DNA of 64,000 nucleotides from positions 141,724 to 205,723 of the forward strand of contig JAKAWT010000002.1 in the NCBI GenBank assembly GCA_021816845.1, read 5' to 3'. Numbering within the stretch: the first letter of the stretch is position 1; each line of letters opens with the position of its first letter. Both the position numbers and the translations under genes were made by a program. This DNA is from a bacterium. Its GTDB lineage: Bacteria; Patescibacteriota; Dojkabacteria; JAKAPS01; JAJZLI01. This document shows positions 7,495-60,312 of the stretch, in pieces. The notes under the pieces are model-generated. The model was not told the origin of the DNA and searched no databases. It saw only the letters and a list, made by a program, of their open reading frames with translations.

Positions 7495-8355
7495 ATGCAC
7501 AATATGGAATTTCAACATAATGAAATGTTAGAGGAATATGGTAATTTCAAGGTATCTGTTATAGATGGTATTGATGGATCAGGAAAAGGTTCTGCAACAG
7601 AGGAAATGGCAGAGATAATTTCAGGTTTAGGATATAACGTATTAACTGTAGACTATCCCCAGTATGATGCCTTGTGGGGTCAAATAATACAGAAACTTCT
7701 TGATACTGATGATCCAACTATTGACATATACCAAAGAATGGCTATATATGCTCTAAATAGATTAGAAAGTGTACCTTCTCTAAAAGCACAAATGAAAGAT
7801 ATAGGCTCTTTTTATAATACTACATATGTACTTTTTGATAGATTCATAACATCCAATGCTATGACATGTGCATATTACTCAAAAAAAGACCCAAAAATAT
7901 TAGATGATATTGAATCATTATATAAGTTCATGTTTGATTTAGATTCTACTTTTCTATCCATCCTCCATATTCCTGATTTTCATGTTGTTGTTCCTACAAT
8001 TGATCATGGAAAGGCTATGCAGGCTGTGGAGAAAGATACTCAAAGGAGTGGGACTGATTTGTATGAACAAGTGGATATTTTAAAATTGGGTAATAGGATA
8101 TATCATGAATTTGCTGTACTTGATCCACGGAGATTTACTCTTTTAAATCAAGATTCTTCATATGGTAGAAGAATGTCGAGAGATAGGATAGCACGTGAGA
8201 TTATTAAGATCCAATTCGGTGAGATAGCAGAATATGGGGATAGGAAAGGGAGAGTTTATAGATTCCAATTTGACCAATCTAAAGTAGATACCTCTTTATT
8301 TAAACCTATATTAGATAGATTCCCTTCATTAAGATTACTGAATCCATATAAATAG
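7495..8355 (+). CDS. tmk: Thymidylate kinase-like P-loop nucleoside/nucleotide kinase
   Basis: P-loop IDGIDGSGKGS and a DRFITSN motif resembling the Tmk DRYxxS motif. Directly downstream of thyX. Longer (286 aa) than typical Tmk. Confidence 0.55.
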   Translation: MHNMEFQHNEMLEEYGNFKVSVIDGIDGSGKGSATEEMAEIISGLGYNVLTVDYPQYDALWGQIIQKLLDTDDPTIDIYQRMAIYALNRLESVPSLKAQMKDIGSFYNTTYVLFDRFITSNAMTCAYYSKKDPKILDDIESLYKFMFDLDSTFLSILHIPDFHVVVPTIDHGKAMQAVEKDTQRSGTDLYEQVDILKLGNRIYHEFAVLDPRRFTLLNQDSSYGRRMSRDRIAREIIKIQFGEIAEYGDRKGRVYRFQFDQSKVDTSLFKPILDRFPSLRLLNPYK

Positions 8356-8370
8356 ATTTATATTTAATAT

Positions 8371-9765
8371 TTGAATTTAAAAATTTTTTTATATAATATA
8401 TGTTTTATGGATGAATCAATTTTTAAAGCTTACGATATACGAGGTATTTACAAAGATCAGATAAATGAAGATATCGTTTCAAGAATAGGTTATTTCTTCG
8501 TAAAATATGGTAATTTAAAGAATATATGTGTTGGTAGAGACATAAGATCGTCTTCTCCATCACTATTTCAGAGTTTTATAAAAGGTGCTATTTCTGCAGG
8601 AGCTCAAGTTACAGATATAGGTATCATATCTACAGACATGATGTACTTTGCTGCAGGATATTACAAATTTGATGGGGGTGCTCAAATTACTGCGTCTCAC
8701 AACCCAAAAGAATATAATGGTGTCAAATTAGTACTAAAAAATGTAGATCCTATATCTGGAGATAACGGTATGTATGAATTACGTGATATGGTAAAAGATA
8801 GTTTTCTTCATGATATAGGTTATGTAGATACTATAGAAACAACAAAAATAGATATACTTAACGATTATGTTGATCATGTACTATCCTTTGTAGACAAAGA
8901 TAAACTAAATGGCTTGAAAGTAGTCGTAGATGCAGGTAATGGTGTGGCTGGATATGTAGTGGATGCTATATTTAAAAGATTGAATTGTGAGCTCATCAGT
9001 ATGTATTTTGAACCTGATGAAAATTTCCCCAATCACCCCGCTAATCCTATGGAAGAAGCTAATCTTAAGGATATAGAAGATAAAGTTATTGAGGTGCATG
9101 CAGATTTGGGGATAGCCTTTGATGGAGATGCTGATAGATGCGGTTTTGTTGATAACAATGGTGTTTCATCAACGGGTTATTTTATAACAGCCCTACTCTC
9201 GAAAAATATATTAATTAAAAATAAAGGAGCTAAAATAATACATGATCCAAGACAGATTTGGGCTATAGATGACACTGTAAAAGAGATGGGAGGTATACCA
9301 ATTATATCTAAAGCAGGGCATTCATTTATTGCAGCTAGAATGAAAAAAGAAGATGCTATATTTGCAGGTGAAATAAGCTCTCATTTCTATTTTAGAGATA
9401 ACTTTTATTCAGATAATGGAATGATTCCTATGCTTATGATGATGGAACTTCTGAAGGCTCAGCATACTTCTTTCTCTTCTCTACTCTCGTACTACAGATC
9501 AAAATATTTCACATCTCCAGAGATAAATTATGATGTCCAAGATACAGATAGTGTACTTAATAGTGTAGAAAAGAAATATTCAGATAATGGTGACTGTAAA
9601 ATCTCACATATTGACGGTTTGTCAGTAGATTTTAGTGATTGGAGATTTAATTTAAGAGGTTCTAATACTGAACCACTTGTTAGGCTTAATTTAGAGGCAA
9701 AATCTAAGGATCTTCTAGATTCACATCTTAAAGAAGTAGAAAATTTTATTAAAGAAGATATTTAA
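8371..9765 (+). CDS. Phosphoglucomutase/phosphomannomutase (alpha-D-phosphohexomutase)
   Basis: Active-site TASHNPKEYNGVK (phosphoserine loop), metal-binding DGDADR, four-domain length. Probable true start ATG 8407 (MDESIFKAYDIRG). Confidence 0.85.
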   Translation: MNLKIFLYNICFMDESIFKAYDIRGIYKDQINEDIVSRIGYFFVKYGNLKNICVGRDIRSSSPSLFQSFIKGAISAGAQVTDIGIISTDMMYFAAGYYKFDGGAQITASHNPKEYNGVKLVLKNVDPISGDNGMYELRDMVKDSFLHDIGYVDTIETTKIDILNDYVDHVLSFVDKDKLNGLKVVVDAGNGVAGYVVDAIFKRLNCELISMYFEPDENFPNHPANPMEEANLKDIEDKVIEVHADLGIAFDGDADRCGFVDNNGVSSTGYFITALLSKNILIKNKGAKIIHDPRQIWAIDDTVKEMGGIPIISKAGHSFIAARMKKEDAIFAGEISSHFYFRDNFYSDNGMIPMLMMMELLKAQHTSFSSLLSYYRSKYFTSPEINYDVQDTDSVLNSVEKKYSDNGDCKISHIDGLSVDFSDWRFNLRGSNTEPLVRLNLEAKSKDLLDSHLKEVENFIKEDI

Positions 9766-9871: not shown

Positions 9872-10594
9872 ATGTTAGAAATTAATAATCTCTCAAAATC
9901 ATTTAACGGTAGAAAGGTTCTTCATGATATCAACATTAAGGTCAAAGAAGGTGAAATATATGGGTTTTTAGGCCCTAATGGTGCAGGAAAAAGTACAACA
10001 GTAAAAATAATGGCAGGTATATATATACAAGATAGTGGTAATGTACTAGTAAATGGTCAAGATAATAGAAATATCAATGTCAAAAAGATTATTGGATATA
10101 TGCCTGATGAGCCATATGTATATGAAAGACTCAATGCAAAAGAATTCTTATCTTTTGTAGCAGATATATATGATATTCAAGATAAAGATAGAAAAATCAA
10201 AGAAGCGTTGAATCTTTTTGATACAGATGAAAATTTGGACTCTGATGATTCAAATTTAAATATAGAAAACCTTTCTAGAGGTTCTAGGCAAAAGCTTGTT
10301 ATTGCAGCTACATTGATGCATGATCCTAAGATTTTGATAATAGATGAGCCTTTAATAGGTCTAGATCCTAAATCAGTAATCCAGTTTCAGGCTATATTAG
10401 AGAATTTTTCAAAAAATAAGGGGATTATATTTCTATCAACTCATTCACTAGATATAGCATCTAAGATTTGTACTAAGATTGGTATAATCAATCATGGGAA
10501 AATTATTGATGAAGGTACCATAGATGAATTAAAAGATCAAACTAAGAAAAATAATTTAGAAGATGTCTTCTTAAAACTTACATATGAAGAGTAA
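9872..10594 (+). CDS. ABC transporter ATP-binding protein
   Basis: Walker A GPNGAGKST, ABC signature LSRGSRQKL, Walker B ILIIDEP. Confidence 0.85.
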   Translation: MLEINNLSKSFNGRKVLHDINIKVKEGEIYGFLGPNGAGKSTTVKIMAGIYIQDSGNVLVNGQDNRNINVKKIIGYMPDEPYVYERLNAKEFLSFVADIYDIQDKDRKIKEALNLFDTDENLDSDDSNLNIENLSRGSRQKLVIAATLMHDPKILIIDEPLIGLDPKSVIQFQAILENFSKNKGIIFLSTHSLDIASKICTKIGIINHGKIIDEGTIDELKDQTKKNNLEDVFLKLTYEE

Positions 10595-12143
10595 ATATTT
10601 CATTAAGTATGCATTACTTGCAAATTCAAAATATTTCAAAGAAAAAAATATCGCAAGGAAAATTGTTATCATATTATTTTTTCTTGCAGTCATAGCTTTA
10701 TTATTGATAGAATTTATACTTTATTTCTTTCTTCTTACCATACTCAAACAACATAATGTTAATATTGATGTTGTAAATGCAATAATATCAGATTCACTGT
10801 TTTTTATATTTATATTCTCACTTATATCATCATGTGCATTGCTTTTTAAAACATTCCTTATCAATCCTTTCGAAAGTTATATTCTAACATTTCCAGTGTC
10901 TAAAGAAGATATCATAATATCAAAAATTTCACATATATTCTTTACAAATATACTAATAATATCTCTTTTTTCATCTCCAATAATATTTACATACATATAC
11001 ATATATAACATACAATTTTTTAACATACCTTTCCTTATTTTGATCATTATACTGTTTATCCTATCTTCTATATTTGTTACTTTATTTGATGCTATATGGG
11101 TTATGATTACCAATCAAATATTACCTACACTAAAGGAAAATATAAAGACAAACTTTTCTTTAATAGTGATACTTTTTCTAGCATTTCTCCTAGCTTTAAA
11201 AAGTATTCCAAATTTAGAACTGTTATCTAAATCAAAAAATGTTGCTATGTTTACCAATATAATGATGCAATCAAAACCTCTAAGCATACTACCTTCCAGT
11301 CTTATATCTAACGTCTTAAGTTTTAGAGACTATACACAACTTGCCATTCTGATTTTTGAGGTAATAGTTCTGTATATTATTTTTGTTTTTCTTTCAAAAA
11401 AAGTTGTCTTTAAGTTATCAACACAGATAAAATCTGATAGGAATATTAAGTATTTTAAGAACTTTATTCTAAATAAAGAGCTGAATAATTTCTTTAAACA
11501 GGAGAAAAATCTAATCAATTCTCTATCAATATTTTTCCTTTTAGTAATATTTATAGCCTTAATAATAAGTATAGGAAATGCTAATATATCTTTGAAATAC
11601 TATAGTTTATTTTATGTGTTAATTCTCGGAAGTTTCGCCTATATATTAACCCTTTTGTCATTATATTTTATTTTTCCATCTTTATCTATGGAGAAAAAAG
11701 GAGGATGGATAATATTTCAGGCACCAATAAAAAGAAGTGTTATATTAAAATATAAATACATAGCATCAACTGTATTTATGTTTGTACAGACCATAGTATT
11801 ATATTTGATTTTTCAATTTTTTCTAAATTTTAAAGGAAACTATTTTTATTATTTTATAGTATTCACAATAATGACATTTATAACAATTAATATAATATTT
11901 TTATCACTAGGTACTATTTCCCCTAATTTTAAAAATAGAAGTCTCCAGGATTTGTCCACTACCCCATCAGCTTTATTTGCAACTTTCTTAAGTGTTTTTT
12001 ATATAGTATTTCTACTATATATATTATATAAATATGGATTTTTGTTATCTTTGATCCTAATGGTTATAATATCAGGATTCATCATTTTGGTATTAATGAA
12101 TAAAGCATTTTCGAAAATTAATACTATGGATATTGATTTCTGA
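10584..12143 (+). CDS. ABC-2-type permease / polytopic membrane protein
   Basis: 519 aa, very hydrophobic with more than 10 predicted TM segments. Overlaps the ABC ATPase stop by 11 nt (translational coupling). Confidence 0.55.
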   Translation: MKSKYFIKYALLANSKYFKEKNIARKIVIILFFLAVIALLLIEFILYFFLLTILKQHNVNIDVVNAIISDSLFFIFIFSLISSCALLFKTFLINPFESYILTFPVSKEDIIISKISHIFFTNILIISLFSSPIIFTYIYIYNIQFFNIPFLILIIILFILSSIFVTLFDAIWVMITNQILPTLKENIKTNFSLIVILFLAFLLALKSIPNLELLSKSKNVAMFTNIMMQSKPLSILPSSLISNVLSFRDYTQLAILIFEVIVLYIIFVFLSKKVVFKLSTQIKSDRNIKYFKNFILNKELNNFFKQEKNLINSLSIFFLLVIFIALIISIGNANISLKYYSLFYVLILGSFAYILTLLSLYFIFPSLSMEKKGGWIIFQAPIKRSVILKYKYIASTVFMFVQTIVLYLIFQFFLNFKGNYFYYFIVFTIMTFITINIIFLSLGTISPNFKNRSLQDLSTTPSALFATFLSVFYIVFLLYILYKYGFLLSLILMVIISGFIILVLMNKAFSKINTMDIDF

Positions 12144-15445: not shown

Positions 15446-16027
15446 TTAAAGTTCTCCATTTATGTATCTAACAATCTCATTCCAAGAATAAACCCTTTTA
15501 GTATTTTTGATTTTTTTCATATCTTGATTCCATGGAGCATCAAATATTAAGGTTTCAATACCTAGAGATGATACCTCTATAACATTCTCTACTGCATCAT
15601 CTATAAAAATATTAATATTTAAATTATTACATACCTCTGCTTTTGATCTTATTTTATCATTATCATACCCTGTAAAATGTACATCTTTATAATATCCTTT
15701 AAAATGGATATCTAGATTTTTTAGAGTTCTATCTTTTAAAAATAATGATCTTGCTGTTATTAGGTATATATCATGATTTTTAGATAGTTTGGCCAATCCT
15801 GCCTTTGATCCCTGGATTGGTTTAAGATTTAGAAATTTTTCAGAATTATGCCACTTCTTTAATTTTAATTCATATTCTTCTATAGAATCCCACACGTTAT
15901 GAAGTGCATAGATTTCATTTATGGGCAAAGATTCTTTTTTAGAATCATATATGTACTTGAGTGATGATATCTCATCTAATATAACATTATCAATATCAAC
16001 ACCAATTTTTAATCTTTTTCTTATCAT
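15446..16027 (-). CDS. HAD-superfamily 5'(3')-deoxyribonucleotidase-like phosphatase
   Basis: N-terminal DxDxV nucleophile motif (KIGVDIDNVILD) as in the NT5C family; 193 aa. Confidence 0.55.
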   Translation of the reverse strand: MIRKRLKIGVDIDNVILDEISSLKYIYDSKKESLPINEIYALHNVWDSIEEYELKLKKWHNSEKFLNLKPIQGSKAGLAKLSKNHDIYLITARSLFLKDRTLKNLDIHFKGYYKDVHFTGYDNDKIRSKAEVCNNLNINIFIDDAVENVIEVSSLGIETLIFDAPWNQDMKKIKNTKRVYSWNEIVRYINGEL

Positions 16028-16059: not shown

Positions 16060-17409
16060 TTATAAGTTGCTTACCAATTGCTGATACAAAGCAACGTATT
16101 TTTCTGCAGATCTACCCCAAGAAAAATCTTCATTCATTGCTGTTTGTATCATTTCATCCCATTTTGGGGTATTGAACATGGATAATGCCTCTTTTAGAGT
16201 GTTTACTAAACTCAATGGGGAATATTCTTCAAATGTAAATCCAGATACCAAACCTTCTACTGAGTCCTTAAGTCCTCCAGTCGATCTTACAATAGGCAGT
16301 GTTCCATACTTCATTGCAATCATTTGTGTTAATCCAGATGGTTCATATCTTGAAGGTATTATTAATGCATCAGCACCTGCATATATTTTTTCAGCTAATG
16401 TTATATCAAAAGTGATATCAGCAAATAAAGAAGGATCCTTTGTTCCTAGAATCTGTAGTTGATCTTCAAAATCTTTGGCTCCTGTACCCAATATGATGAA
16501 ATTTGCATTTTTATTCTCTAGAGTCTCCATAGCTTTGATCAATATATCAATACCTTTCTGATAATCTAGTCTTGATATAAAAGCAAAAAGAGGAGCATCA
16601 GTGCTAAATTTTAAATGTAATTCATCAATAAGTCTTTTTTTGTTTTCCAGTTTTCCCATCTTATAATTGGATATATTATATTTGGAATAAATTTTATCAT
16701 CCTTATCTGGATCATAAATTGAATAATCTATTCCATTCAATATTCCATATAAATTACTTTTTCTAAGTTCCATAAAATCTTCTATCTCTCCTCCGTATTC
16801 TTTTGTTAATATCTCTTTAGCATAAGTAGAAGATACTGTGGATACAATATTTGCATTTAATACACCTTGTAATAGAAGATTAATTTGGTTATCTGATTTA
16901 TCAATCTCTATAGTTGAATGATATTTTTGAAGCTTTAATGCATCTAATATTTCAAGTGAATATCTTCCTTGGTAGGCTGGACCTAAATTATGTATAGTTA
17001 ACATAGTTTTTACATTATTTAATCCTATGTCTTTTAGAAGTATAGGTATTAATGATGTGTGATAATCATTTATATGGACAATATCTACTCTTCCAAATTT
17101 TTCATCTTTTATGTCTTGAACTACCTTTTGTGAAAACATTGCAAATCTTATAGGGTCATCTGGATATCCATAAACGTTATCTCTTGATGAAAAATATTCT
17201 GGTATATCTATATAATTAATTTTTACATCTGAACCAGGGATTGTTGCAGGCTGTGGTGTAGGTATTATTTTATATTTAGGTATTACTACTTGTATATTAA
17301 TAAAGTCTAATAAACATTTTGGTAAAGCCCCTGCAACATCTGCAAGACCACCTACCTTTATTATTGGTGCAAGCTCAGATGAAACAAATAAAACATTAAT
17401 TTTGTCCAT
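16060..17409 (-). CDS. glgA: Glycogen/starch synthase (GT5, GlgA-like), paralog a
   Basis: N-terminal KVGGLADVAGALPK (KxGGL motif). GT-B fold length, C-terminal E-x7-E region (SRYEPSGLTQM). Confidence 0.8.
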   Translation of the reverse strand: MDKINVLFVSSELAPIIKVGGLADVAGALPKCLLDFINIQVVIPKYKIIPTPQPATIPGSDVKINYIDIPEYFSSRDNVYGYPDDPIRFAMFSQKVVQDIKDEKFGRVDIVHINDYHTSLIPILLKDIGLNNVKTMLTIHNLGPAYQGRYSLEILDALKLQKYHSTIEIDKSDNQINLLLQGVLNANIVSTVSSTYAKEILTKEYGGEIEDFMELRKSNLYGILNGIDYSIYDPDKDDKIYSKYNISNYKMGKLENKKRLIDELHLKFSTDAPLFAFISRLDYQKGIDILIKAMETLENKNANFIILGTGAKDFEDQLQILGTKDPSLFADITFDITLAEKIYAGADALIIPSRYEPSGLTQMIAMKYGTLPIVRSTGGLKDSVEGLVSGFTFEEYSPLSLVNTLKEALSMFNTPKWDEMIQTAMNEDFSWGRSAEKYVALYQQLVSNL

Positions 17410-18826
17410 GTTTTTTATTATAGCCTATTATTCCTTTTTGTTTCAAATAAAGATTGTTTATTCTTTTTCTGAACTCTTCTGCTCTTTTAAAATTTAATTT
17501 TTCTGCTGATTCAAGCATTTGCTTTTCAAGATGTTTTATTATGCTATCATATTCTTTAGGATCAGCATCATATGATTTAGTTTCAATAATTTCACCAGCT
17601 TCTTCATCAAAATTATTTGCCATTCTATCTATAACTCCTTCTCTTTGCCATGCAAATGCAGTAAATATTATGTCTTTATATAAATTTATTGCCCTTTTTT
17701 TATCTTCATCCTCCAAATCAGGTAAGTTAAGGATACTCTCTCTAAGTTCATATGCTCCCTTTTCTATCATTTCTATACTCCACCATGGTCTTGCTGAAGC
17801 CCACCAATATTGATCGGAATGTATTGCTTTATCAAGGATACTTCGTGCTCTATACCATTGTTTTTCTTTTATACTAAGCTTTCTATTCTTATCATTCAAG
17901 TCGTTAAACCTATATTTTGAGGTACTAACTTTTTCTATTGCAAAATGTGTAAGCTGCCATTGCATTTGATTTACTTTATTATCGCGATTTAACCACCTTT
18001 GGTATGGTTGGTCTTTTAATAGTTCCGTTGGGATTAAAGCCCAAGTAGAGGGAACTATTGATACACTATCTCCAATTTTAAAAGAATCTAGTAGATCCTC
18101 ATATCTTGCAGTTTTGATCTTATCAGACTTAAATATATCCTCAAGTAGTAATTCAAGCCCTGGTCTGTGATGGCCAAATGTTTCTCCATCCATTGCTGTT
18201 GGCAGATAAATATTCTGATTAATCAAGTCTTTTATTTCTGCTAAGAATATATTTCCATTTTCAAGTTGTGCAGATAATATTTTAAAACTGATATCTCTAT
18301 CTCTAAAAAAACCTACCATGTTGGTTCCTTTAATTTTATATAATACGTCATGTTTTATATCACCTTTATCTTTTTCAAAGGCTAACTCATCAAATAACAT
18401 CCATTTATAACCCATCTTTGAAACAACATTAACAACTTTTTCTGATATTCCAAGTTCAGGAGAAAAAAAACCTTTTGGGTTATATAAAGGTCCATATACT
18501 GATTTGTTTATTTTATGGTTTAATTCTATCTGCCTTATTATTTCATCCTCTGGGATTAGTGGAAGGAATGCATGATATGCTGCTGAATCAGTTAATTCTA
18601 TTTGTCCTCTTTCAAGTAATAACTTTATATCCTCAATCAGGTTATAATACTTATATTTTATAAATAACTCTGTAAGTGATGCGTTTATATTTAATGTGAT
18701 TTTACCTTTTGTATTTTCTTTTAAGGTATTTAGAATAACACTATAACTTTCATCTGCTATAAGATCTAGCATTTCTTTTGTTTGAGTGGGTGGTTGATAT
18801 ATGTGTAGAAAATTTGCCCAAATCAT
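17396..18826 (-). CDS. Glycoside hydrolase family 57 protein (alpha-glucan branching/processing), paralog a
   Basis: GH57 region 1 NFLHIYQPPTQ (HxHQP-like), GQIEL, and a candidate nucleophile Glu (FSPELGI) and acid/base Asp (AMDGETFGHH). Overlaps the upstream GT5 by 14 nt. Confidence 0.75.
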   Translation of the reverse strand: MIWANFLHIYQPPTQTKEMLDLIADESYSVILNTLKENTKGKITLNINASLTELFIKYKYYNLIEDIKLLLERGQIELTDSAAYHAFLPLIPEDEIIRQIELNHKINKSVYGPLYNPKGFFSPELGISEKVVNVVSKMGYKWMLFDELAFEKDKGDIKHDVLYKIKGTNMVGFFRDRDISFKILSAQLENGNIFLAEIKDLINQNIYLPTAMDGETFGHHRPGLELLLEDIFKSDKIKTARYEDLLDSFKIGDSVSIVPSTWALIPTELLKDQPYQRWLNRDNKVNQMQWQLTHFAIEKVSTSKYRFNDLNDKNRKLSIKEKQWYRARSILDKAIHSDQYWWASARPWWSIEMIEKGAYELRESILNLPDLEDEDKKRAINLYKDIIFTAFAWQREGVIDRMANNFDEEAGEIIETKSYDADPKEYDSIIKHLEKQMLESAEKLNFKRAEEFRKRINNLYLKQKGIIGYNKKHGQN

Positions 18827-18829
18827 ATA

Positions 18830-20239
18830 TTAATTTTTATTTCCTAAATTTAATTTTTCTTGTTTGATTTCCTCTATCCTAGTTTTTAACTTATCTGCTA
18901 TGTCATACTCTCTATTTTTTGATGCATTGTACATTTCTTTTTCTAATCTTTTTATTGCTTTATCATATCCATTTGGATCTGCTTTTTTATTTGAAATTTC
19001 TTTATTGCGTTCATCAAGAAAAAATTGTGATGATAGTTTTTTTATTTTTCCTTCCCTTTCCCATGCTATGGCAGTTAGAATAATATCTTCATAATATGAT
19101 CTTCCTTTATCTTTGTCTGATTTTTCTGTGTCCGGGACTAAATCGATTACTACTGAAAGGTTATATGCACCTCTTTCAATCATTTCTATATCCCATACAG
19201 GTTTTGCTGATGCAAAAAAGAATTGGTCATGGTATAGGGATTGATCGAGCAAGTATCTCGCTTTTAGCCATGTTTTTTCCCTTTCTTGAAGATAAGTATA
19301 ATCTATATCTACAATATAAGGATCTTCAATTTGATATATAGAATTATACACAGATTTGAATGCTAAATTAAGTAATCTCTGTTGCAATTGATGAATTTTA
19401 TTATCTTTACTCATCCAACGTTCAAAAGAATTTTGTTCATTATATAAAGGTACAGTCCATGTACTTTGGTTAGGTTTTATATCAAATCTTTTTTTAATCT
19501 TAATTATTAAATCTTTAAACAAGATATAGTGTAGAGATTTTTGATTATATAGATATTCAAACATTTTTATATACCCTATTCTTTGATGTCCAAAAGTTTC
19601 TCCATCTTCTCCTGTATATAAGAACTCACCATTTTTTATTTTATTTTCAAATGAAGATATTAAATCTTCTTTCTTCTCCATTTGGGCAGTTAGGATATAA
19701 AAGCTAGATGCTCTATCTCTTATAAAAATATCTAGTCCATCGTTTTTATATATACATGAATGATCTATCTTTCCATTTATTGCAGTTTCATCAAGTAGTA
19801 TGTATTTATAGCCTGAAGATTCTAATCTAATATTTTTGATAACATCAAAAGATTTTTGGTCATATGCCATTGCTGTAGGTAGAAAACCTAATGGTTCATA
19901 GTTTTTAAAATACATTTTATTAATTTTTCTATTTAACAATATTTGCCTTTCAATTTCTTTTTTAGGTAACATTGGAAGGAACGCTTGGTAAGCTGGAGTG
20001 TCTATAAATTCTATTTGCCCTTGTAATGATAATTGAGATATTGTATCAAGTAAGCCAGTATACCCTAATTTATATAAAGTTTCTGTTAAACCTGCATTTA
20101 TTACAAGATTAATTTTTGCATTCTTATTATTTTTAATAACATTAAATAGAGGTATATAGCTTTCTTCAATAACCTTCTTTAGGATTTCATCTTTTTGTGT
20201 AGGTGGTTGATAAATGAATATCAGATTAGTCCAGTTCAT
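18830..20239 (-). CDS. Glycoside hydrolase family 57 protein, paralog b (possibly catalytically altered)
   Basis: Same architecture as paralog a (NLIFIYQPPTQ, GQIEF, EDGETFGHQ). The position aligned to the nucleophile Glu reads PTAMA. Confidence 0.7.
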   Translation of the reverse strand: MNWTNLIFIYQPPTQKDEILKKVIEESYIPLFNVIKNNKNAKINLVINAGLTETLYKLGYTGLLDTISQLSLQGQIEFIDTPAYQAFLPMLPKKEIERQILLNRKINKMYFKNYEPLGFLPTAMAYDQKSFDVIKNIRLESSGYKYILLDETAINGKIDHSCIYKNDGLDIFIRDRASSFYILTAQMEKKEDLISSFENKIKNGEFLYTGEDGETFGHQRIGYIKMFEYLYNQKSLHYILFKDLIIKIKKRFDIKPNQSTWTVPLYNEQNSFERWMSKDNKIHQLQQRLLNLAFKSVYNSIYQIEDPYIVDIDYTYLQEREKTWLKARYLLDQSLYHDQFFFASAKPVWDIEMIERGAYNLSVVIDLVPDTEKSDKDKGRSYYEDIILTAIAWEREGKIKKLSSQFFLDERNKEISNKKADPNGYDKAIKRLEKEMYNASKNREYDIADKLKTRIEEIKQEKLNLGNKN

Positions 20240-20241
20240 GA

Positions 20242-21768
20242 TTAGAATATTTGATAGTTCATCCCTAATTTGTCTATTGGTCCATTAGTTATATTCATTG
20301 CTCTTATATATATATCTATATATTTCCTTGCAGAATTCTCCCAAGAGAAATCTGTTTTCATTGCGGATTCTACTATTTTTCTCCATAACCCTATATTATT
20401 ATACTGATCTATCGCCCTTACTATCGTACCATATAAGGAATATGGATTATAATTATCAAATAAGAATCCATTACCAGAAATATTCTCCATATTAAAATCT
20501 GTAATAGAATCTGATAATCCACCTATGTTTCTTGCAATTGGAATACAACCATATCTCATTGATTCCATTTGTGTTATTCCTGATGGTTCAAATCTTGAAG
20601 GTATTAGTATCATATCGGCGCCAGAAAATACTTTTTTAGGCAAAATAAAATCAGCCATCAAATGAGTTCCAACCCTTTTTGGGTATTTCTTTTCTAATTT
20701 CTGAAAGTATGATATGTATCTCCCATCTCCACTTCCTATTATTACAAACTGTATATCTTTGTATTCTAGAAAAAGTGGATCCAGTATTTCTATTACAAGA
20801 TCTAATCCTTTCTGATCATCTAATCTTGTAACCATAGAAAGTATAGGGCCATTAGATTTTTCTAAGTCAAATTCTTTTTGTAGAGCAACTTTATTAATAT
20901 GTCTTTTTATTGAACTTCTCCAATCATAATTTTCTACAACATTTATGTCTGTTTCAGGATTCATATATGTATAATCTATACCATTCAATATCCCTACTAA
21001 TTTAGTTCTAACTTCCTTTAAAAGATGTTCTAGTCCTTCTGAGTATTCAGGAGTTAAAATTTCCTTGGAGTATTTTTCAGAAACTGTTGATACTATATCA
21101 GCATACATTATTGCCCTTCTCATAAAATTTTGTTTTTGTAATGCTGGATCAAACAAATCTGCTATCTCTCCTCTCCCATTATCAAAATCTAGATCATTGG
21201 TATTTTTATGATCAAATAATCCTTGATGTACTATATTGTGTATACTAAATACTGTAGATATCTTTGATAGTTTTGGGTCATCTTTATAATTTACTTTTAA
21301 CAAATTTGGGATGTGTCCTGTATGCCAATCTGCACAATTTATTACATCTGGAACCCATGTAGATATCTTTAGAAACTCCATTATTGATAATGATAAAAGA
21401 AGAAATCTGATATGATCATCAGAATATCCATATACATTTGATCTAGTTTCATAGAACTCCTTGTTCTCTATAAAATATACAATAGGTTCTTCTTCACTTT
21501 CTTGGTAAACTTTTATATTGCAAATTATATCTCTTTGTGATTGTGTTGGTATCTTCAATCCTTCATATAACATTTTAAGGGGATACCTTTCTTCGTCAAT
21601 ATTCCCATATTTAGGCATTATTATTCTTGCATCTACACCTTCTTTTTTTAATGCTTTTGTAAGAAAATATGATACCTGTCCAAGACCACCTACGCCAGCG
21701 TAAGGGTAAACTTCAGCAGAGGTATATAATAATTTTATATTGTTCCTAATTTTCATTAAAGAATTCAT
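20242..21768 (-). CDS. GT5 glycogen-synthase-like glycosyltransferase, paralog b
   Basis: N-terminal AGVGGLGQV (the KxGGL motif with Lys replaced). GT-B C-terminal half with SRFEPSGITQM. Confidence 0.7.
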   Translation of the reverse strand: MNSLMKIRNNIKLLYTSAEVYPYAGVGGLGQVSYFLTKALKKEGVDARIIMPKYGNIDEERYPLKMLYEGLKIPTQSQRDIICNIKVYQESEEEPIVYFIENKEFYETRSNVYGYSDDHIRFLLLSLSIMEFLKISTWVPDVINCADWHTGHIPNLLKVNYKDDPKLSKISTVFSIHNIVHQGLFDHKNTNDLDFDNGRGEIADLFDPALQKQNFMRRAIMYADIVSTVSEKYSKEILTPEYSEGLEHLLKEVRTKLVGILNGIDYTYMNPETDINVVENYDWRSSIKRHINKVALQKEFDLEKSNGPILSMVTRLDDQKGLDLVIEILDPLFLEYKDIQFVIIGSGDGRYISYFQKLEKKYPKRVGTHLMADFILPKKVFSGADMILIPSRFEPSGITQMESMRYGCIPIARNIGGLSDSITDFNMENISGNGFLFDNYNPYSLYGTIVRAIDQYNNIGLWRKIVESAMKTDFSWENSARKYIDIYIRAMNITNGPIDKLGMNYQIF

Positions 21769-22837
21769 TTTCTATTGCCTTTTTTGTATCTTCTGGAAAC
21801 CTATCTATCACAAATCTTCCCATCAATTCTGAATATGCAAGATCAGATTGACGAGGCATTATCATTATGTACATTCCAGCATTGGTTTTACTGTTTGTTC
21901 TTTTTCCTAAAAAATTAATATTTAAGCTTCTAATTCCAGCATTAACATCTTCTCCATCCTTATTTTTAAATTTCATTAAAGAAAGAGCTCTTAATACTTT
22001 ATACAGTATATTCGATAACTCTTCAATATAATCTTCATTTAATGAAAATAAATTTCCTATTTCTCTATTTTTTGCTTGTATTTGTATTTCATCTTTGAAT
22101 CTTGGTGAAAATGGCGTAAATACTATAAAATTATCTGTCTCATGTATGACTAGACTGCTAGATCTTAAAGCTTGATTATATAAATCTATATAGTCTACAC
22201 CCTTTTTGAAAAACTTATTTATGATATCCTCATATCTATCATATAAGGGAAAGAAACTATTTTTATATACAGCTCCAATCTGTGCATGTAAATGAGGTTG
22301 ACTTGCACCTGCAGGATATTTTTCTTTATCAGTACCAAAATTGATTCCTGCTGCAATCTGATTAACATTATCTTTTAGAGTAATTTCTTTAGATCTTTTT
22401 GATAATGCAGAAATGAGCCCAAATATGTGTTTTCTCTCTATATCTTTTATATCATCTATATGATCTTTCAAAACTATAAGATCATGAAATCCTGGATTGA
22501 ATGCAAAAGGATTTGGGGCTTGATAAACTCCCCATTCATCATACTCCACAATAGGGTGAGCAACATCATCAAGATTGTCAAATAAACAGTACCCTTCTTT
22601 GATATCTTCAGGTGTTTTAATATCTGGTTGTGGTCTTTTTGACCTAGAGTATGAAATTAAGGTTGAATGATTTAAAAAAGGATCTACCCTCTCAACTACT
22701 TGATCTGATACGACATTCCCTTTTAGTGTAACCTCTTCTTCAGTTTTCTTTACAAATTCTATAAAGTATGGAGGTGTTTCAGTTATAAGGCTCTGCTTAC
22801 TATCTTCGTTGCTATTAAAAGGTATTGATTTAATCAT
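21746..22837 (-). CDS. HIT-superfamily GalT-like hexose-1-phosphate nucleotidyltransferase / NDP-glucose phosphorylase
   Basis: HxHxQ active-site motif (PHLHAQIGA) typical of galactose-1-P uridylyltransferase branch-III HIT enzymes. Overlaps GT5b by 23 nt and is first gene of the minus-strand glycogen operon. Confidence 0.6.
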   Translation of the reverse strand: MIKSIPFNSNEDSKQSLITETPPYFIEFVKKTEEEVTLKGNVVSDQVVERVDPFLNHSTLISYSRSKRPQPDIKTPEDIKEGYCLFDNLDDVAHPIVEYDEWGVYQAPNPFAFNPGFHDLIVLKDHIDDIKDIERKHIFGLISALSKRSKEITLKDNVNQIAAGINFGTDKEKYPAGASQPHLHAQIGAVYKNSFFPLYDRYEDIINKFFKKGVDYIDLYNQALRSSSLVIHETDNFIVFTPFSPRFKDEIQIQAKNREIGNLFSLNEDYIEELSNILYKVLRALSLMKFKNKDGEDVNAGIRSLNINFLGKRTNSKTNAGMYIMIMPRQSDLAYSELMGRFVIDRFPEDTKKAIENEFFNEN

Positions 22838-22987
22838 GTGTTTATTAGGTTTTTGAATCTACTATTGCAAGATTAATATAACAGATTTAGAATCATTGTA
22901 CAATAATTATTTAATGTAATGTTAATTATTTTTAAATATAAAATAATTATATGTTCACCAATATATTATAGCGAGTAAAGTAATAGG

Positions 22988-25802: not shown

Positions 25803-28541
25803 TCAAATATGATTAATATTAAAAATATTATAATTCGTATTAATATCATACTTCATAAAAATGTTAAGTGTTTCAACTGATTGTTTTAGTCTCCCTGTCT
25901 TGAAATATAATAGAGATAAAATAGCGTTATTATTATCTAGATTATTTGTGAAATATACCATGTTATTACCGTAGAAATTAGTTTGAAATATTATTTTTTG
26001 ATTATATATTTGTTTTTGTATTTTATTATTATGAATCTCAAAATATGGTATCAATGCTGCATATAAAACCAATGATTCTTGATAATCACGTATTTGACCA
26101 TTTATTGAATACTGTGAAAATATTATGTGAGAATCATTCCATTGATTAATGAAAAATTTAGTTTTCTTAATATAATTATATGCTTCCTTACTATTATTTA
26201 AATAATAGTCTAGACCAGCGTTCCATAATACCTGATAAGCATCAAGAGCAAATCTAGTTGAAATATTTGACTCACCAAATCTTCCATTATTGTTAATAAT
26301 ACAGTAATTCACTGGTAAGTATATATTTTTATTATTTAGTGTAGAACAATTATTTATAACTCTATATGATGTATTTACTATGTTACTCCAGTCGTGTGAA
26401 GGATCAACAAAAGCAAAAATCCTGTATTGGTAAGGAGCTAAATATGAAGGATTGAGTATGTAGGAATTATTATTCTTAGCCCAATCACCAGCGATGACAT
26501 ATCTTTGATTATTTATTTTGACGGTTTCATTTTTCCATATGCTATTTAGGATAGCTTTTGCCTTAATAATATAATAGCTTTTTCTCCACTTATATGCTGC
26601 TAATATTAATGAATATGCAATATTTTGATCTGCATTTACAGAAGATTTTGTATTTATAACTCCATAACTTCCATTTGCATGTTTTCCCCATGAACTCACA
26701 AAAAGATTGTAATGTGGTGCTGAAGCATCTCCAGTCTTAGTCATATTTCCATATGTCCAATTTAAGATATTATTAAACATATTTTGTTTATTCATATATA
26801 AAGTATTTAGGAGTGCATATGATTGGAATTTGGAGGAAGTGATATTTGATTTTGTAGAAACATTGCCTATATAGTTTAAATATTTAATTTTGTAATATGA
26901 CCAAAATTCATTTAAAATTAAATTTTCTGTATCTAAGTTTGACTTGTAATATATGTTACTAGTTAATTTACCTGTTAACACGGGTATATTAGTCATATTT
27001 ATATTATTTTCTAAAGTAAATGTTTTAACTTTAGTTTTATTAAATTTTAGAATCTCATAATCTTTGTTATTTATAATTTTGTAATAATAATTGTAAAAAT
27101 TTTTATCAGATATCCCATATAATTGAGATTTTGGATAATGTTTATTAATTATAATATAATTAGTATAAATCCATGGTTCCTTTGTGAGATATTTGTTGTT
27201 ATTGATTTCATTTGTTGTTATTAAAAATTTATAATTTATTTTTATATTTTGTAATAATTCTGAATCATCATTAATATTTGCAAGGACGAATCCACTTTTA
27301 TAATCTTTTTGAAATTTATCTACTGTAGTTTTGAAATAACTTCCATAATTATGTTTATATATTTTATTATGGTTGTTTAAATAATAAGATTGATATTCTA
27401 TATTTAATAATGAGAATATAATCACTAATATAAACAATGTGTATTTAAAATATCTTTTTAGATATATATTATTTTTATAATCTATTGATGCAAAAAATAT
27501 TGCTGGAGGAATCGCAATAAATGGAAGTAGTAGCAAAGTTAATTCTCTGTTTGGATTTTGTAAAAATATAGATAATACTAAAAATAATAATGGTATTAAA
27601 ACTAGTATCAATATGATTATTGAGTTATGTTTGTTAGTTTTTTTTATCCTAAAGAAAAAGCATGCATAAGAAAATATTGAAAGTATAATAAAGAATAGTC
27701 CATATATTGAGACTATATTTTCTGCCAAATGAATTAGATTTATTAATATATTTTGTGAATTTATTACTAGATTATAGTTGATGTTTCCAATGAAATTTTT
27801 ATAAATATAATAGTTATAAATTAATATATACAATATTGGTATTATTGCAATAAACAAGAATAGTATAATTGTTGCTTCAATTTTTTTAATGTCTTCGTAT
27901 TTACATTTTTTTTCAAAGTAAATAAATAATGGGATTATAATTATATATATTATTGATATAATATTTAATAGAATTAATCCTGCAGTTAAAACACTTATTA
28001 GGAATAATTTCATCTTTCTATTAGTATTATTCCATGTTATTAGATAATAGAAGAGCATTATGGATAGCAATGAGTAAATTATAAAATGTGACCCTGAAGA
28101 AACAAAATATAATATATTGGGATTGAATGTAATTATTAAAGATGATAGTAACCCAGCAATTTTATTTTTAGTTATATATTTTATTAGAATATATAAATAT
28201 ACATTCAAAATTGAAAAAAATATTATATTTGGTATTGCTAAAGAAATTCCCGAATTTAATAAATATTGATTTATAGAAAATATTGAGAATATTATATTAT
28301 ATAGTAAGTGATAAGATCCTAATTGTAGTGACCCAGTATAAATTTTATCTAAGAAAATTTTAGTATTTTCTAATTGTATGTTTGAATAATTGCTTAAAAT
28401 TAGTAAATTACTCTTTACTAAAAAATATGTATAAAATGAGGATATTAGAAAAGAATATATAAATATAATCCTCTTTATAGGTGATTTGTTAATATTTAAT
28501 TTTTTTGAACTTAATTCTTTAATTTTATATGCTATATTCAT
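25803..28541 (-). CDS. Large polytopic membrane protein with C-terminal extracytoplasmic GH8-like (BcsZ-type endoglucanase) domain
   Basis: About 14 TM helices in the first 400 aa. C-terminal about 350 aa contain GH8-like motifs (SSWGKHANGSYGV; NADQNIAYSLILAAYKW; ILNPSYLAPYQYRIFA). Start overlaps the stop of the upstream GT2 by 4 nt. Confidence 0.5.
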   Translation of the reverse strand: MNIAYKIKELSSKKLNINKSPIKRIIFIYSFLISSFYTYFLVKSNLLILSNYSNIQLENTKIFLDKIYTGSLQLGSYHLLYNIIFSIFSINQYLLNSGISLAIPNIIFFSILNVYLYILIKYITKNKIAGLLSSLIITFNPNILYFVSSGSHFIIYSLLSIMLFYYLITWNNTNRKMKLFLISVLTAGLILLNIISIIYIIIIPLFIYFEKKCKYEDIKKIEATIILFLFIAIIPILYILIYNYYIYKNFIGNINYNLVINSQNILINLIHLAENIVSIYGLFFIILSIFSYACFFFRIKKTNKHNSIIILILVLIPLLFLVLSIFLQNPNRELTLLLLPFIAIPPAIFFASIDYKNNIYLKRYFKYTLFILVIIFSLLNIEYQSYYLNNHNKIYKHNYGSYFKTTVDKFQKDYKSGFVLANINDDSELLQNIKINYKFLITTNEINNNKYLTKEPWIYTNYIIINKHYPKSQLYGISDKNFYNYYYKIINNKDYEILKFNKTKVKTFTLENNINMTNIPVLTGKLTSNIYYKSNLDTENLILNEFWSYYKIKYLNYIGNVSTKSNITSSKFQSYALLNTLYMNKQNMFNNILNWTYGNMTKTGDASAPHYNLFVSSWGKHANGSYGVINTKSSVNADQNIAYSLILAAYKWRKSYYIIKAKAILNSIWKNETVKINNQRYVIAGDWAKNNNSYILNPSYLAPYQYRIFAFVDPSHDWSNIVNTSYRVINNCSTLNNKNIYLPVNYCIINNNGRFGESNISTRFALDAYQVLWNAGLDYYLNNSKEAYNYIKKTKFFINQWNDSHIIFSQYSINGQIRDYQESLVLYAALIPYFEIHNNKIQKQIYNQKIIFQTNFYGNNMVYFTNNLDNNNAILSLLYFKTGRLKQSVETLNIFMKYDINTNYNIFNINHI

Positions 28542-30064
28542 TTGTTCACAAGATTTACAATAGGAATTAATGTCTTATTTTCATTTATAATATGCTTTCC
28601 ATGAGTAGTTTTTTCCCAAGAGTAAGGATTGATCACAATTTGATACATGGCTCTAATAGTAGCTATAGAAAGTACTATCCAGTAAATTGGAGATAAAAGT
28701 ATATATTTAACAATTGAAAATCTATCTCTAGAATATGATCCTATCAAATTTAGATATGTAAAGATCAAGTTACCCAGTACAAATGATATAATAGAGATAA
28801 TAAGTATCGGTTCTGGGAAGGATTCCTTAATAAGTGGTGATGATGTGATAAACCATATTAGAAGTAGTACCCAATAAATAAAATTAAATGCATTTACAAT
28901 AACTGTTCCAGGGACTGTTATTAGAAATCCAATAAAATTTTTCCATCCTCCAAGTTCATTTTTAGTTCTTATAGGTTCTCTTAGGTTAACTATACTAGTT
29001 TGTATGAACCCTTTCATCCATCTTGTCCTTTGTTTGATCCAACTATTTATATCTGACGTTGCTTCCTCTTTACTCATAGAATCTAATATACTTGTTCTAT
29101 AACCATTTCTCCTTAATCTAATACCTATATCACAGTCTTCTGCTACATTATAAGGATCCCAACCTCCTATATCTTTTATTGCAGATATTCTAAAGTGTGT
29201 ACTATGGCCTGATAAAGGGATTGGAAAATCAAATTTTTGTAATCCAGGTAAGAATAAATCATAGTAAAATGAAAATTCGCTATTGAATAAACCAGTTATT
29301 ATATTTTGATCTGCATTATAATGATCTAATCTTGTTTGAAAACATGCAATGTCTGGTTTCTTTAAGAATGCTAAATATGCTTTTTTAAGTTGATTTTTAT
29401 CTGGGATTATTTCCGCATCATAAATTACTAAAAACTCTCCTTTTAATTCTTGTAATGCTACATTTAAAGCTTTGGGTTTAGTTTTGGGTTCTACATTTGG
29501 TAGTATAAGTTTTCTAAAATTAGATGGGAAGTTTGCCCTATCTATTGCAGCTATAGTCTCATCATCATATTCTTCTAATGTTATTATAAATTCTACTTTG
29601 TCTTTAGGATAATCAATATCCATCATAGCTTTTTTGATTTGGTTAACAACCTCACTTTCTTTATATAATGGTATAATTACTGAATAATATGGTAAATCAT
29701 TCTCATTGATTAAGCCTATATCTTTATTAGATATATGTATAAAATCTGTTGTCTTAGATTTTAATACTACAATCACTTTGAAAATCATGAAAATGAAATA
29801 AGTTATTGCTATAAATGACGAGATATATATGTATATAGAAATATTACTGAAGTATGATAACAATGTTAAAGAAATTAATATTATGGCAATAATTATAGCT
29901 AAATTTTCTATTGGTTCTTTGTAAATATGTCTTTTTGAAGAATAGATTAATGGTAAATATAAATAATCTTGAGTATTTTTATAATTTACTGTATAGAATT
30001 TTTCTAGTCTAGGAATAGACATTATTTTTTTTACTATATTCTTTAGATTATTATATATAACCAT
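28538..30064 (-). CDS. Processive family-2 glycosyltransferase (cellulose/chitin/hyaluronan-synthase-like beta-glycan synthase)
   Basis: N-terminal TMs, GT-A core with DAE (D,D,D) motifs and the processive-synthase signature QRTRW (QxxRW), then C-terminal TM bundle. No PilZ domain evident. Confidence 0.7.
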   Translation of the reverse strand: MVIYNNLKNIVKKIMSIPRLEKFYTVNYKNTQDYLYLPLIYSSKRHIYKEPIENLAIIIAIILISLTLLSYFSNISIYIYISSFIAITYFIFMIFKVIVVLKSKTTDFIHISNKDIGLINENDLPYYSVIIPLYKESEVVNQIKKAMMDIDYPKDKVEFIITLEEYDDETIAAIDRANFPSNFRKLILPNVEPKTKPKALNVALQELKGEFLVIYDAEIIPDKNQLKKAYLAFLKKPDIACFQTRLDHYNADQNIITGLFNSEFSFYYDLFLPGLQKFDFPIPLSGHSTHFRISAIKDIGGWDPYNVAEDCDIGIRLRRNGYRTSILDSMSKEEATSDINSWIKQRTRWMKGFIQTSIVNLREPIRTKNELGGWKNFIGFLITVPGTVIVNAFNFIYWVLLLIWFITSSPLIKESFPEPILIISIISFVLGNLIFTYLNLIGSYSRDRFSIVKYILLSPIYWIVLSIATIRAMYQIVINPYSWEKTTHGKHIINENKTLIPIVNLVNK

Positions 30065-56703: not shown

Positions 56704-56705
56704 GT

Positions 56706-58677: not shown

Positions 58678-58682
58678 AGATT

Positions 58683-60311: not shown

Positions 60312-60312
60312 C

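Follow-up and report, generated by a model that had tools for sequence, protein, structure and literature searches.

How a bacterium might assemble a storage glucan where the expected GlgC is not found, and why it should carry two forms each of its glycogen synthase and its GH57 protein, are the questions raised by a cluster of five genes from a member of the Dojkabacteria (Patescibacteriota; NCBI GenBank assembly GCA_021816845.1). The cluster lies in a stretch of 64,000 nucleotides (nt) of contig JAKAWT010000002.1 (positions 141,724 to 205,723 of the forward strand), referred to here as the window, which is AT-rich (GC content ~29%). It encodes two glycogen/starch-synthase-type glycosyltransferases of family GT5 (GT5a and GT5b), two glycoside hydrolase family 57 proteins (GH57a and GH57b) and a HIT protein resembling galactose-1-phosphate uridylyltransferase (GalT). 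A preliminary description had regarded the cluster as a mirrored island in which each pair joined a canonical copy to a diverged, catalytically altered one. The analysis reported here favours a different view, held with moderate confidence for the locus and the proposed roles of all five genes taken together: the region is probably one lineage's version of an operon that is widespread in the Patescibacteria (candidate phyla radiation, CPR) and is concerned with a glycogen-type α-1,4-glucan.

The five open reading frames (ORFs) are tightly packed on the minus strand at 16060-22837 and are transcribed in the order HIT, GT5b, GH57b, GH57a, GT5a (Table 1), with successive gene junctions of -23, +2, +3 and -14 nt. 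This co-directional packing, and every motif quoted in the preliminary description (including PH182LH184AQ186 of the HIT protein), was confirmed from the ORFs. Gene order was judged in every HIT-family locus that was long enough, and it is identical in all seven of these related Patescibacteria loci (L001, L004-L008 and L011; 44-71% protein identity). Between the window and L001, identity is 51% for HIT, 67% for GT5b, 44% for GH57b, 61% for GH57a and 67% for GT5a. The ratio of non-synonymous to synonymous substitution rates (dN/dS) is 0.025-0.11 for each of the five genes in two pairs of closely related genomes, as expected of purifying selection. Given the conserved order and the low dN/dS, the arrangement is no product of chance, and the five genes are taken to be functional members of one operon.

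A similar arrangement is found well beyond the close relatives of the window. Eighty metagenome loci were gathered with the GH57-UVR family, to which GH57a belongs, as the anchor, and 35 of them had enough flanking DNA for full context. A GT5 gene lies upstream in 34/35 of these and on both sides in 24/35; a GalT-like HIT gene occurs in 22/35, always together with both GT5s; two GH57 genes are present in 20/35, and the complete set (GT5-GH57-GH57-GT5 plus HIT) in 19/35. The commonest order is GT5 (~490 amino acids, aa), short GH57 (~407 aa, without UVR), GH57-UVR (~459 aa), an optional APH-like kinase, an optional PHP gene, GT5 (~490 aa) and HIT (~311-360 aa), and genome examples include a Kerfeldbacteria contig. 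Since the mirrored layout is usual among Patescibacteria loci, it is not a peculiarity of the window, and that part of the earlier view is abandoned. The APH-like kinase (~330 aa; maltokinase-type fold family; PF01636 27 bits in L017) lies between GH57-UVR and the downstream GT5 in most other versions of the operon, and a PHP phosphoesterase (~290 aa; PF02811 55 bits in L015) often accompanies it; both genes are absent from the window.

In its five gene families and their mirrored layout the window matches the metagenome operon; GT5a corresponds by orthology to the downstream GT5, and GH57a to GH57-UVR. However, its clade departs from the common version at several points. The intact short GH57 is absent and a nucleophile-less GH57-UVR duplicate stands in its slot; the HIT gene, which is extremely divergent, stands at the front and not at the end; the upstream GT5 lacks the lysine of the KXGGL motif; and the kinase and PHP genes are missing.

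The GH57 pair provides the clearest of these departures. Both proteins match PF03065 (98.6 bits for GH57a, 72.2 bits for GH57b) and show the (β/α)7-barrel GH57 fold, and both pass the PF02151 gathering cut-off of 21.5 bits with a C-terminal UVR motif. A family profile built from 68 members matches the UvrB C-terminal domain over its last ~60 positions (E value 1.7e-5), and the predicted model of GH57b has helices at residues 422-441 and 445-468 in the UVR region. In the profile alignment, the consensus GffppEmaY falls on GVWLTERVW of the Thermococcus litoralis 4-α-glucanotransferase and on GIWLAECGY of AmyC, while amDgEtfGh falls on pyDtElFGH of the GH57 branching enzymes. We take the aligned Glu of the T. 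litoralis enzyme to be its nucleophile E123 and the aligned Asp of the branching enzymes to be the acid/base. The alignment therefore supports the Glu column proposed in the preliminary description.

At these sites GH57a reads FSPE124LG and MD213GETFGHH, with E124, D213, H8 and H85 all present, whereas GH57b reads PTA123MA and ED212GETFGHQ. The two proteins are 40% identical and align without a gap at the nucleophile site. The column holds Glu in 7/7 GH57a orthologues, in 100% of 67 family members and in 113/113 other GH57 proteins from the 80 metagenome loci, whereas it holds Ala or Ser in 7/7 GH57b orthologues. The proton-donor Asp of conserved sequence region (CSR) 4, within DGETFGH, is present in both proteins. 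Of 126 family columns conserved at ≥90%, 16 are changed in all seven GH57b orthologues; these include both active-site His (H8 in CSR-1, and H85), S337 and the tryptophans W341, W342 and W348 of CSR-5, whereas CSR-4 retains D212 and E214. The loss of the nucleophile, which had been noticed at the outset, is thus borne out by the family profile, the ungapped pairwise alignment and the orthologues alike. A nucleophile at a shifted position was also considered and rejected, as there is no conserved acidic residue near column 123 in the seven orthologues, and the acidic residue at about +5 is found in GH57a as well.

GH57b occupies the operon position of the common short GH57, and orthology to that protein was therefore considered. 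In neighbour-joining trees, however, GH57b joined the GH57a clade in 91/100 bootstraps and the short GH57s in only 4/100, while the short GH57s and GH57b each formed a single clade in 100/100; furthermore, GH57b carries the UVR tail that the short proteins lack. Thus, the short-GH57 slot appears to have been taken by a tandem duplicate of the lineage's own GH57-UVR gene. The short GH57 partners elsewhere keep all five tested catalytic residues (28/28). An exhaustive search of 1.84 billion representatives returned only two clusters of GH57b orthologues, the next best match being the GH57a orthologue of the same clade; the GH57a family has at least 2888 homologues of 450-480 aa with a UVR tail, many annotated as 'UvrB/UvrC motif-containing protein'. 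On the evidence of these alignments and trees, GH57b is a lineage-specific tandem duplicate of GH57a whose catalytic centre was then lost and which has been maintained since. A decaying pseudogene was rejected, given an ORF intact in seven genomes and a dN/dS of 0.05-0.10. In the two close pairs GH57b (0.095 and 0.051) is not more relaxed than GH57a (0.069 and 0.047), and at longer range it diverges faster (window and L001 share 44% identity in GH57b but 61% in GH57a). For the GH57 pair, then, the idea of one canonical and one diverged member holds, and a catalytic protein beside a conserved, putatively non-catalytic partner is a fair reading. In a Wildermuthbacteria genome (L019), the two GT5 genes are separated by nothing more than a UVR-motif ORF of 266 aa (10079-10879), possibly a GH57-UVR gene that has been truncated or frameshifted.

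The same changes in GH57b could be read as a gain of new chemistry, in which an external nucleophile or an activated donor (as in a natural 'glycosynthase' or a phosphorylase-like enzyme) or an inverting mechanism would operate through the retained Asp212 and Glu214 in an opened nucleophile pocket. Engineered glycosynthases rely on the same two replacement residues, Ala and Ser. The remodelling of GH57b is coordinated, with all 16 positions changed in every orthologue and the acid/base motif kept, and the gene is under purifying selection of the same strength as GH57a. However, both substrate-binding His and three Trp of the cleft have gone as well, which favours a lost -1 subsite over a retuned one, and the faster divergence of GH57b over distance also tells against new chemistry. 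GH57 'like' proteins without catalytic residues are, moreover, a recurring class for which no activity has ever been shown (PMC6037648). New chemistry is accordingly regarded as distinctly unlikely, and a non-catalytic GH57b is preferred.

The GT5 pair has a different history. Both proteins exceed the cut-off of the glgA model TIGR02095 (328.45 bits), with 442 bits for GT5a and 460 bits for GT5b, and both match PF08323 (177 and 209 bits, respectively). Their mutual identity is 33%, and by this measure they are old paralogues and not a recent duplicate pair. The two synthases are regarded as non-redundant, GT5a being the canonical one. GT5a has the motif K18-VGGLADV and an aromatic residue (Phe) at the column of Escherichia coli Y355 in all orthologues. 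Its best matches are the downstream GT5s of L017, L018 and L015, and on this basis it is an orthologue of the downstream GT5 in other Patescibacteria operons. The N-domain of GT5a is ~20 residues shorter than that of the Agrobacterium tumefaciens and E. coli glycogen synthases. GT5b, by comparison, aligns end to end with residues 2-476 of the E. coli enzyme and keeps the DWH, HN, RLxxQKG and PSRFEPxG motifs. In both proteins DWH/DYH, IHN, RLDxQKG and PSR[FY]EPSG are in register with the E. coli and A. tumefaciens synthases; these positions presumably correspond to the catalytic and phosphate-binding residues D137, H161, R300, K305 and E377 of E. coli, and the Lys column to K15.

The loss of this Lys from GT5b, another element of the preliminary description, is secure and extends far beyond the window. 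G25 stands at the Lys column in 7/7 orthologues, and Lys occurs in 0/115 motif-bearing sequences among the 120 best homologues of GT5b (49-71% identity), where the column is occupied by Ser (52), Thr (34), Gly (8) or Ala (5). These homologues come from Nealson-, Wildermuth-, Portnoy- and Pacebacteria, among others, and are mostly annotated as Patescibacteria glycogen synthases. At the Y355 column GT5b has Ala (LMADF), and the subfamily has Pro, Ser or Ala, with an aromatic residue two positions further on. Within the metagenome set, the Lys-less state is seen in 19/45 upstream GT5s and otherwise in one downstream case, while downstream GT5s have both Lys and the aromatic residue in 33/36. The KXGGL Lys contacts the ribose and a Tyr or Phe stacks on the adenine (E. 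coli Y355, AtSSIV Y390); in a GT5 that prefers UDP-glucose, this aromatic residue is displaced (Nielsen et al., 2018, PMC6086201). As both features are lost across the subfamily while the catalytic motifs are kept, GT5b is best read as a putatively active synthase with a remodelled nucleotide pocket and not as a degenerate duplicate. In CpGBSSI, the UDP-glucose-preferring enzyme of that study, the usual adenine-stacking aromatic residue does not stack and donor preference is altered, a likeness to GT5b; GT5b, however, has no aromatic residue at the column at all and also lacks the KXGGL Lys (PMC6086201).

The proposal that both pairs consist of a canonical and a catalytically impaired copy, with GT5b and GH57b as non-catalytic or heteromeric partners, can be weighed at this point. 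It fits GH57b well, through the lost nucleophile, the 16 changed positions and the 91/100 bootstrap, and it accommodates both the missing Lys and adenine-stacking aromatic residue of GT5b and the arrangement GT5b-GH57b/GH57a-GT5a. The GT5s, however, are only 33% identical and belong to different GT5 lineages that co-occur widely, and the Lys-less state is common to all 115 closest motif-bearing homologues in many CPR groups. GT5b also retains its catalytic motifs and full-length similarity to the E. coli enzyme, and its dN/dS of 0.025 is the lowest in the operon. A dead GT5b was rejected on these same grounds. For the GT5s, then, the picture of a catalytically altered duplicate is given up, the more so as GT5b has the higher glgA score and GT5a is the shortened copy, and impairment in both pairs is considered very improbable. 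GT5b as a synthase with a remodelled pocket is retained.

The first gene of the operon encodes the HIT protein, whose family is tiny (16 close homologues in a search of 5.8 billion clusters). GASQPHLHxQIGA, beginning at G177, is invariant in the 16 homologues save for one Ala-to-Ser change at x (185), and it aligns on SHSHSQ of Arabidopsis At5g18200; R50, R65, R68-P and PNPFAFN..G-H118 show little or no variation across the family. The only relative of solved structure that sequence comparison detects is At5g18200 itself (1z84; E value 8e-6, 28.6 bits). An AlphaFold model (mean predicted local distance difference test score 79.8, predicted template modelling score 0.85) gave 2h39/1z84 as its best Foldseek matches (E value 8e-16, template modelling scores 0.65/0.75), followed by class I GalTs (1gup/1hxq, 1e-14). 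The HxHxQ motif and the GalT-type two-domain fold were both found in the protein. It falls below the curated class I GalT cut-offs, scoring 18.3 against 102.1 bits and 26.1 against 448 bits on two GalT models, TIGR00209 being one of those considered; a weak DcpS_C score was obtained, and there was no match to PF01087 or PF02744.

In the zinc-site region C84-L-F-D87 replaces CxxC, while H118 and H182 are present; other operon-linked HIT proteins of the CPR have CPFC or CPFE there or have lost the motif. Relative to other CPR GalT-like proteins, the window's protein has an N-terminal extension, a deleted loop and two insertions. Against At5g18200, the operon-linked HIT proteins of L018 and L015 score 173 and 138 bits; with GalT as the reference, the scores are 59-69 bits (E. 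coli) and 38-46 bits (human). The window's protein is therefore put forward, as a lead from similarity ranking and the predicted fold, as a divergent relative of ADP-glucose phosphorylase, nearer to it than to Leloir GalT. The preliminary description had left its role as a GalT-like enzyme that could supply or phosphorolyse a nucleotide sugar; the nearness to ADP-glucose phosphorylase now favours one side of the family, with the divergence as a caveat.

An ordinary Leloir GalT serving galactose use, with an incidental position beside the glycogen genes, would account for the weak NCBIfam GalT scores (26 and 18 bits) and for the annotation of some homologues as galactose-1-phosphate uridylyltransferase. 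These scores, however, lie far below the cut-offs of 448 and 102 bits, and Pfam scans of the window ORFs found no galK or galE nearby. Linkage to GT5 and GH57 genes is kept in seven loci of the clade and, for related HIT proteins, in 22/35 loci, and those related proteins resemble ADP-glucose phosphorylase much more closely than GalT from either E. coli or human. A Leloir role is thus extremely unlikely, and kinship with ADP-glucose phosphorylase is carried forward.

The question of donor supply turns on GlgC. As stated earlier for the window, no glgC was present: no glgC or NTP_transferase gene was found in ORFs of ≥150 aa, either by Pfam scans (46 of 50 ORFs) or by a motif scan that took in all open frames of this size. 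No GlgC-sized nucleotidyltransferase was found in 1.34 Mb of related loci, where there are only three RmlA-like genes (243-267 aa), at L025 12002-12733 (-; PF00483 185 bits), L044 12092-12895 (-) and L065 5257-6012 (-). All three lie ~2 kb from GT5/GH57 genes, in operons without a HIT gene, so that the RmlA-like and HIT genes may have a complementary distribution, although on three cases only. The presence of RmlA-like genes only beside HIT-less operons suggests the HIT protein as the donor supplier. A four-domain phosphoglucomutase/phosphomannomutase (PGM/PMM) is encoded at 8371-9765 (+), 6 kb from the last gene of the operon, and is a possible source of glucose-1-phosphate. A GH1 glycosidase gene also lies in the window, at 1771-3114 (+).

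The HIT protein could instead be catabolic or housekeeping, phosphorolysing ADP-glucose to ADP and glucose-1-phosphate and so draining the donor or, with a reversible GT5, mobilising glucan without GT35, while a pyrophosphorylase elsewhere made the nucleoside diphosphate (NDP)-glucose. Cellular ratios of inorganic phosphate to glucose-1-phosphate favour phosphorolysis of ADP-glucose, and the operon has no glycogen phosphorylase gene. The characterised homologue, moreover, breaks down ADP-glucose phosphorolytically, with a Km of 7 µM (PMC4136846). However, many CPR lineages have the gene as a fixed member of a synthase operon, and RmlA-like nucleotidyltransferases are seen only beside operons that lack it. 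A catabolic role is on this evidence unlikely, and supply or buffering of the synthase donor is preferred.

In the mechanism proposed for the operon, the HIT protein would interconvert glucose-1-phosphate and NDP-glucose via a covalent His184-nucleoside monophosphate intermediate. The reaction would most likely be ADP + glucose-1-phosphate ↔ ADP-glucose + phosphate, and the protein would replace GlgC in supplying, or else buffering, the donor used by the synthases. GT5a would elongate chains with ADP-glucose, and GT5b would elongate or prime them with a differently recognised donor. GH57a would remodel the chains by branching, transfer or hydrolysis, while GH57b, predicted to be non-catalytic, would bind glucan and pair with GH57a through the UVR helical hairpins.

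Several points weigh against this reading. The search for glgC covered the window and 8-10 kb flanks of the related loci, and not whole genomes. The HIT protein has diverged strongly (it scores 28.6 bits with 1z84 and is 23-31% identical to other CPR GalT-like proteins), lacks the CxxC zinc motif, having CLFD in its place, and carries indels. Its most distant family member (P0015, 43% identity; L003 10001-11008) adjoins no GT5 or GH57 gene and has trmD next to it, so that linkage of the family to glycogen genes is not universal. Energetically, ADP + glucose-1-phosphate → ADP-glucose + phosphate, followed by the synthase, amounts to a phosphorylase run backwards. Net synthesis would therefore need a high ratio of glucose-1-phosphate to phosphate, and the HIT step may equally drain the donor or mobilise glucan. 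For the GH57 proteins, the DGETFGH kept in GH57b means that residual or altered activity may be possible. The C-terminal hairpin of UvrB is a dimerisation module, and a GH57a-GH57b heterodimer formed through the UVR motifs is pure inference. The roles offered for GH57a are broad: it scores 20.6 and 17 bits against the branching-enzyme models NF041133 and NF041566 (cut-offs 1000 and 920), and its sequence fingerprint fits none of the described GH57 subfamilies, with Thr at CSR-4 position 23 where the branching-enzyme fingerprint has Leu (PMC6037648). A true GH57 branching enzyme is thus unsupported by NCBIfam models or fingerprints. Structure searches with the GH57b model do not separate the GH57 subfamilies.

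Taken further, the scheme would have Patescibacteria make, or reversibly mobilise, a storage glucan without GlgC and without ATP cost. The HIT protein would convert ADP and glucose-1-phosphate into ADP-glucose for the GT5s with ADP as a recycled cofactor, the HIT and GT5 reactions in reverse would act as an ADP-dependent 'phosphorylase', and this lineage would have added a nucleophile-less GH57 as a non-catalytic or new-chemistry subunit. This extension is offered tentatively, as a possibility that we would not expect to hold in full.

Comparison with known systems places the operon more precisely. The glgBXCAP operon of E. coli likewise has an ADP-glucose-type GT5 synthase, with which both window proteins align, as they do with the A. 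tumefaciens enzyme, and the product is presumed to be the same α-1,4-glucan. Unlike glgBXCAP, the window operon lacks GlgC, the GH13 enzyme GlgB, GlgX and the GT35 enzyme GlgP, and has instead two GT5 paralogues, two GH57 proteins and a HIT nucleotidyltransferase. At5g18200, the Arabidopsis ADP-glucose phosphorylase, is the best match of the HIT protein by both sequence and fold and has in common with it the HxHxQ motif and the two-half-barrel GalT architecture. The two are only ~20% identical, however, and the window's protein differs in CxxD at the zinc site, the ~45-residue N-terminal extension, the deleted PNPF-GFHD loop and the two insertions.

For GH57b, an analogy is offered by the plant isoamylases ISA1 and ISA2, an active and an inactive paralogue that form a heteromer in glucan metabolism. 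There too a dead paralogue is kept beside an active one in a storage-glucan pathway, as may be the case for GH57b; however, the isoamylases have the GH13 and not the GH57 fold, and the UVR-hairpin interface proposed here has no counterpart in them. Closer by family are the GH57 'like' proteins, which have an incomplete catalytic machinery and are presumed to be non-enzymatic (Janecek and Blesak, 2011; Martinovicova and Janecek, 2018, PMC6037648). GH57b has their fold, conserved sequence regions and incomplete machinery. It comes, however, from the unclassified GH57-UVR subfamily and not from the α-amylase, 4-α-glucanotransferase, APU-CMD or branching-enzyme groups; of the catalytic pair it has lost the nucleophile (Glu to Ala/Ser) and kept the Asp, and it sits in tandem with its presumably active parent in a synthase operon. 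It is a new and well-dated instance of a GH57 'like' protein, from a subfamily outside the published classification (PMC6037648).

Table 1. Coordinates of the operon genes, their motifs and associated regions (window positions unless a locus is named).
Feature	Position	Strand	Remarks
HIT/GalT-like nucleotidyltransferase	21746-22837	-	363 aa; first gene of the operon
GT5b	20242-21768	-	508 aa; glycogen/starch-synthase-type, Lys-less Patescibacteria subfamily
GH57b	18830-20239	-	469 aa; GH57-fold paralogue with dismantled active site and C-terminal UVR hairpin; predicted non-catalytic
GH57a	17396-18826	-	476 aa; catalytic residues complete; large Patescibacteria GH57-UVR family
GT5a	16060-17409	-	449 aa; canonical KXGGL glycogen synthase with shortened N-domain
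HIT active-site motif H182-L-H184-A-Q186	22280-22294	-	H184 is the predicted nucleotidyl-accepting His
GT5b motif A24-G25-VGGLGQV	21673-21699	-	replaces KXGGL; G25 at the Lys column in all 7 orthologues
GH57b codon A123	19871-19873	-	nucleophile-Glu column; Ala or Ser in 7/7 orthologues
GH57a codon E124	18455-18457	-	predicted catalytic nucleophile; aligns to Glu of WLTERV in T. litoralis 4-α-glucanotransferase
GH57b UVR motif (UvrB/UvrC-type helical hairpin)	18857-18964	-	residues 426-461; PF02151 23.0 bits
GH57a UVR motif	17450-17545	-	residues 428-459; PF02151 24.5 bits
AT-rich intergenic leader upstream of the operon	22838-22987	-	promoter-like hexamers 22902-22875 (TGTACA-16-TATATT with TG); consensus match only
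Kinase/PHP regions of other operon versions	L015 9384-11261; L017 9386-10378; L016 9551-11526		also in many of L021-L100

The surroundings of the operon add little on its control. The leader has fewer promoter-like sites than shuffled sequence, and the promoter and terminator scans are uninformative; an Rfam scan of this region gave no match, and no regulatory RNA or tRNA was found in the window. A 5'-nucleotidase/phosphatase of the HAD family, NT5C-like and 193 aa long, is encoded at 15446-16027 (-), 32 nt past GT5a on the same strand, and is therefore possibly co-transcribed; it does not adjoin the operon in L001 or L004. On the opposite strand, an unusually long ThyX-domain protein (599 aa; 4924-6723, +) lies near a thymidylate-kinase-like gene (7495-8355, +), and the same pair is found near the operon in L004 (3410-6101), which suggests local synteny across the clade.

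Other parts of the window hold further features of note. A 556-aa protein encoded at 36512-38182 (-) combines radical SAM, Radical_SAM_C and GNAT domains, the architecture of Elp3 (tRNA wobble-uridine modification), which is uncommon in bacteria. The co-directional genes at 56691-63702 (+), for a LysX/RimK-type ATP-grasp protein, a semialdehyde dehydrogenase, a thiamine pyrophosphate (TPP) enzyme, a pyridoxal phosphate (PLP) enzyme, SHMT and an amino-acid kinase, are an amino-acid biosynthesis cluster, unexpected in a reduced CPR genome. A 1025-aa ORF at 52708-55785 (+) has no Pfam match, and a 912-aa ORF at 25803-28541 (-; 22% GC), apparently a multi-pass membrane protein, overlaps a GT2 glycosyltransferase gene at 28538-30064.

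All the gene families concerned, nucleophile-less GH57 proteins and paired glycogen synthases are already known. Literature searches on CPR glycogen operons, GH57-UVR fusions, DUF4921/DUF4931 and bacterial ADP-glucose phosphorylase returned nothing specific. Within the literature searched, a conserved Patescibacteria operon in which GT5 and GH57 genes are joined, where GlgC is expected, by an ADP-glucose-phosphorylase-like HIT gene appears to be undescribed, as do the large Lys-less GT5 subfamily and this lineage's exchange of an active GH57 for a dead duplicate.

The Patescibacteria account for a large share of bacterial diversity, and their carbon-storage metabolism is essentially uncharacterised. 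The Lys-less GT5s are routinely annotated as 'glycogen synthase', and donor specificity may consequently be mis-assumed in metabolic reconstructions. GH57b offers a clean natural case of the passage from glycoside hydrolase to pseudoenzyme, one that can be placed at the base of a lineage beside its still-active parent and is useful for the study of how non-catalytic subunits originate. If the role proposed for the HIT protein is true, an enzyme family of unclear function in plants would gain its first physiological role. The main interest of the locus lies in a testable GlgC-independent route: with five small soluble proteins, the operon makes glucose activation in energy-poor cells amenable to testing in vitro.

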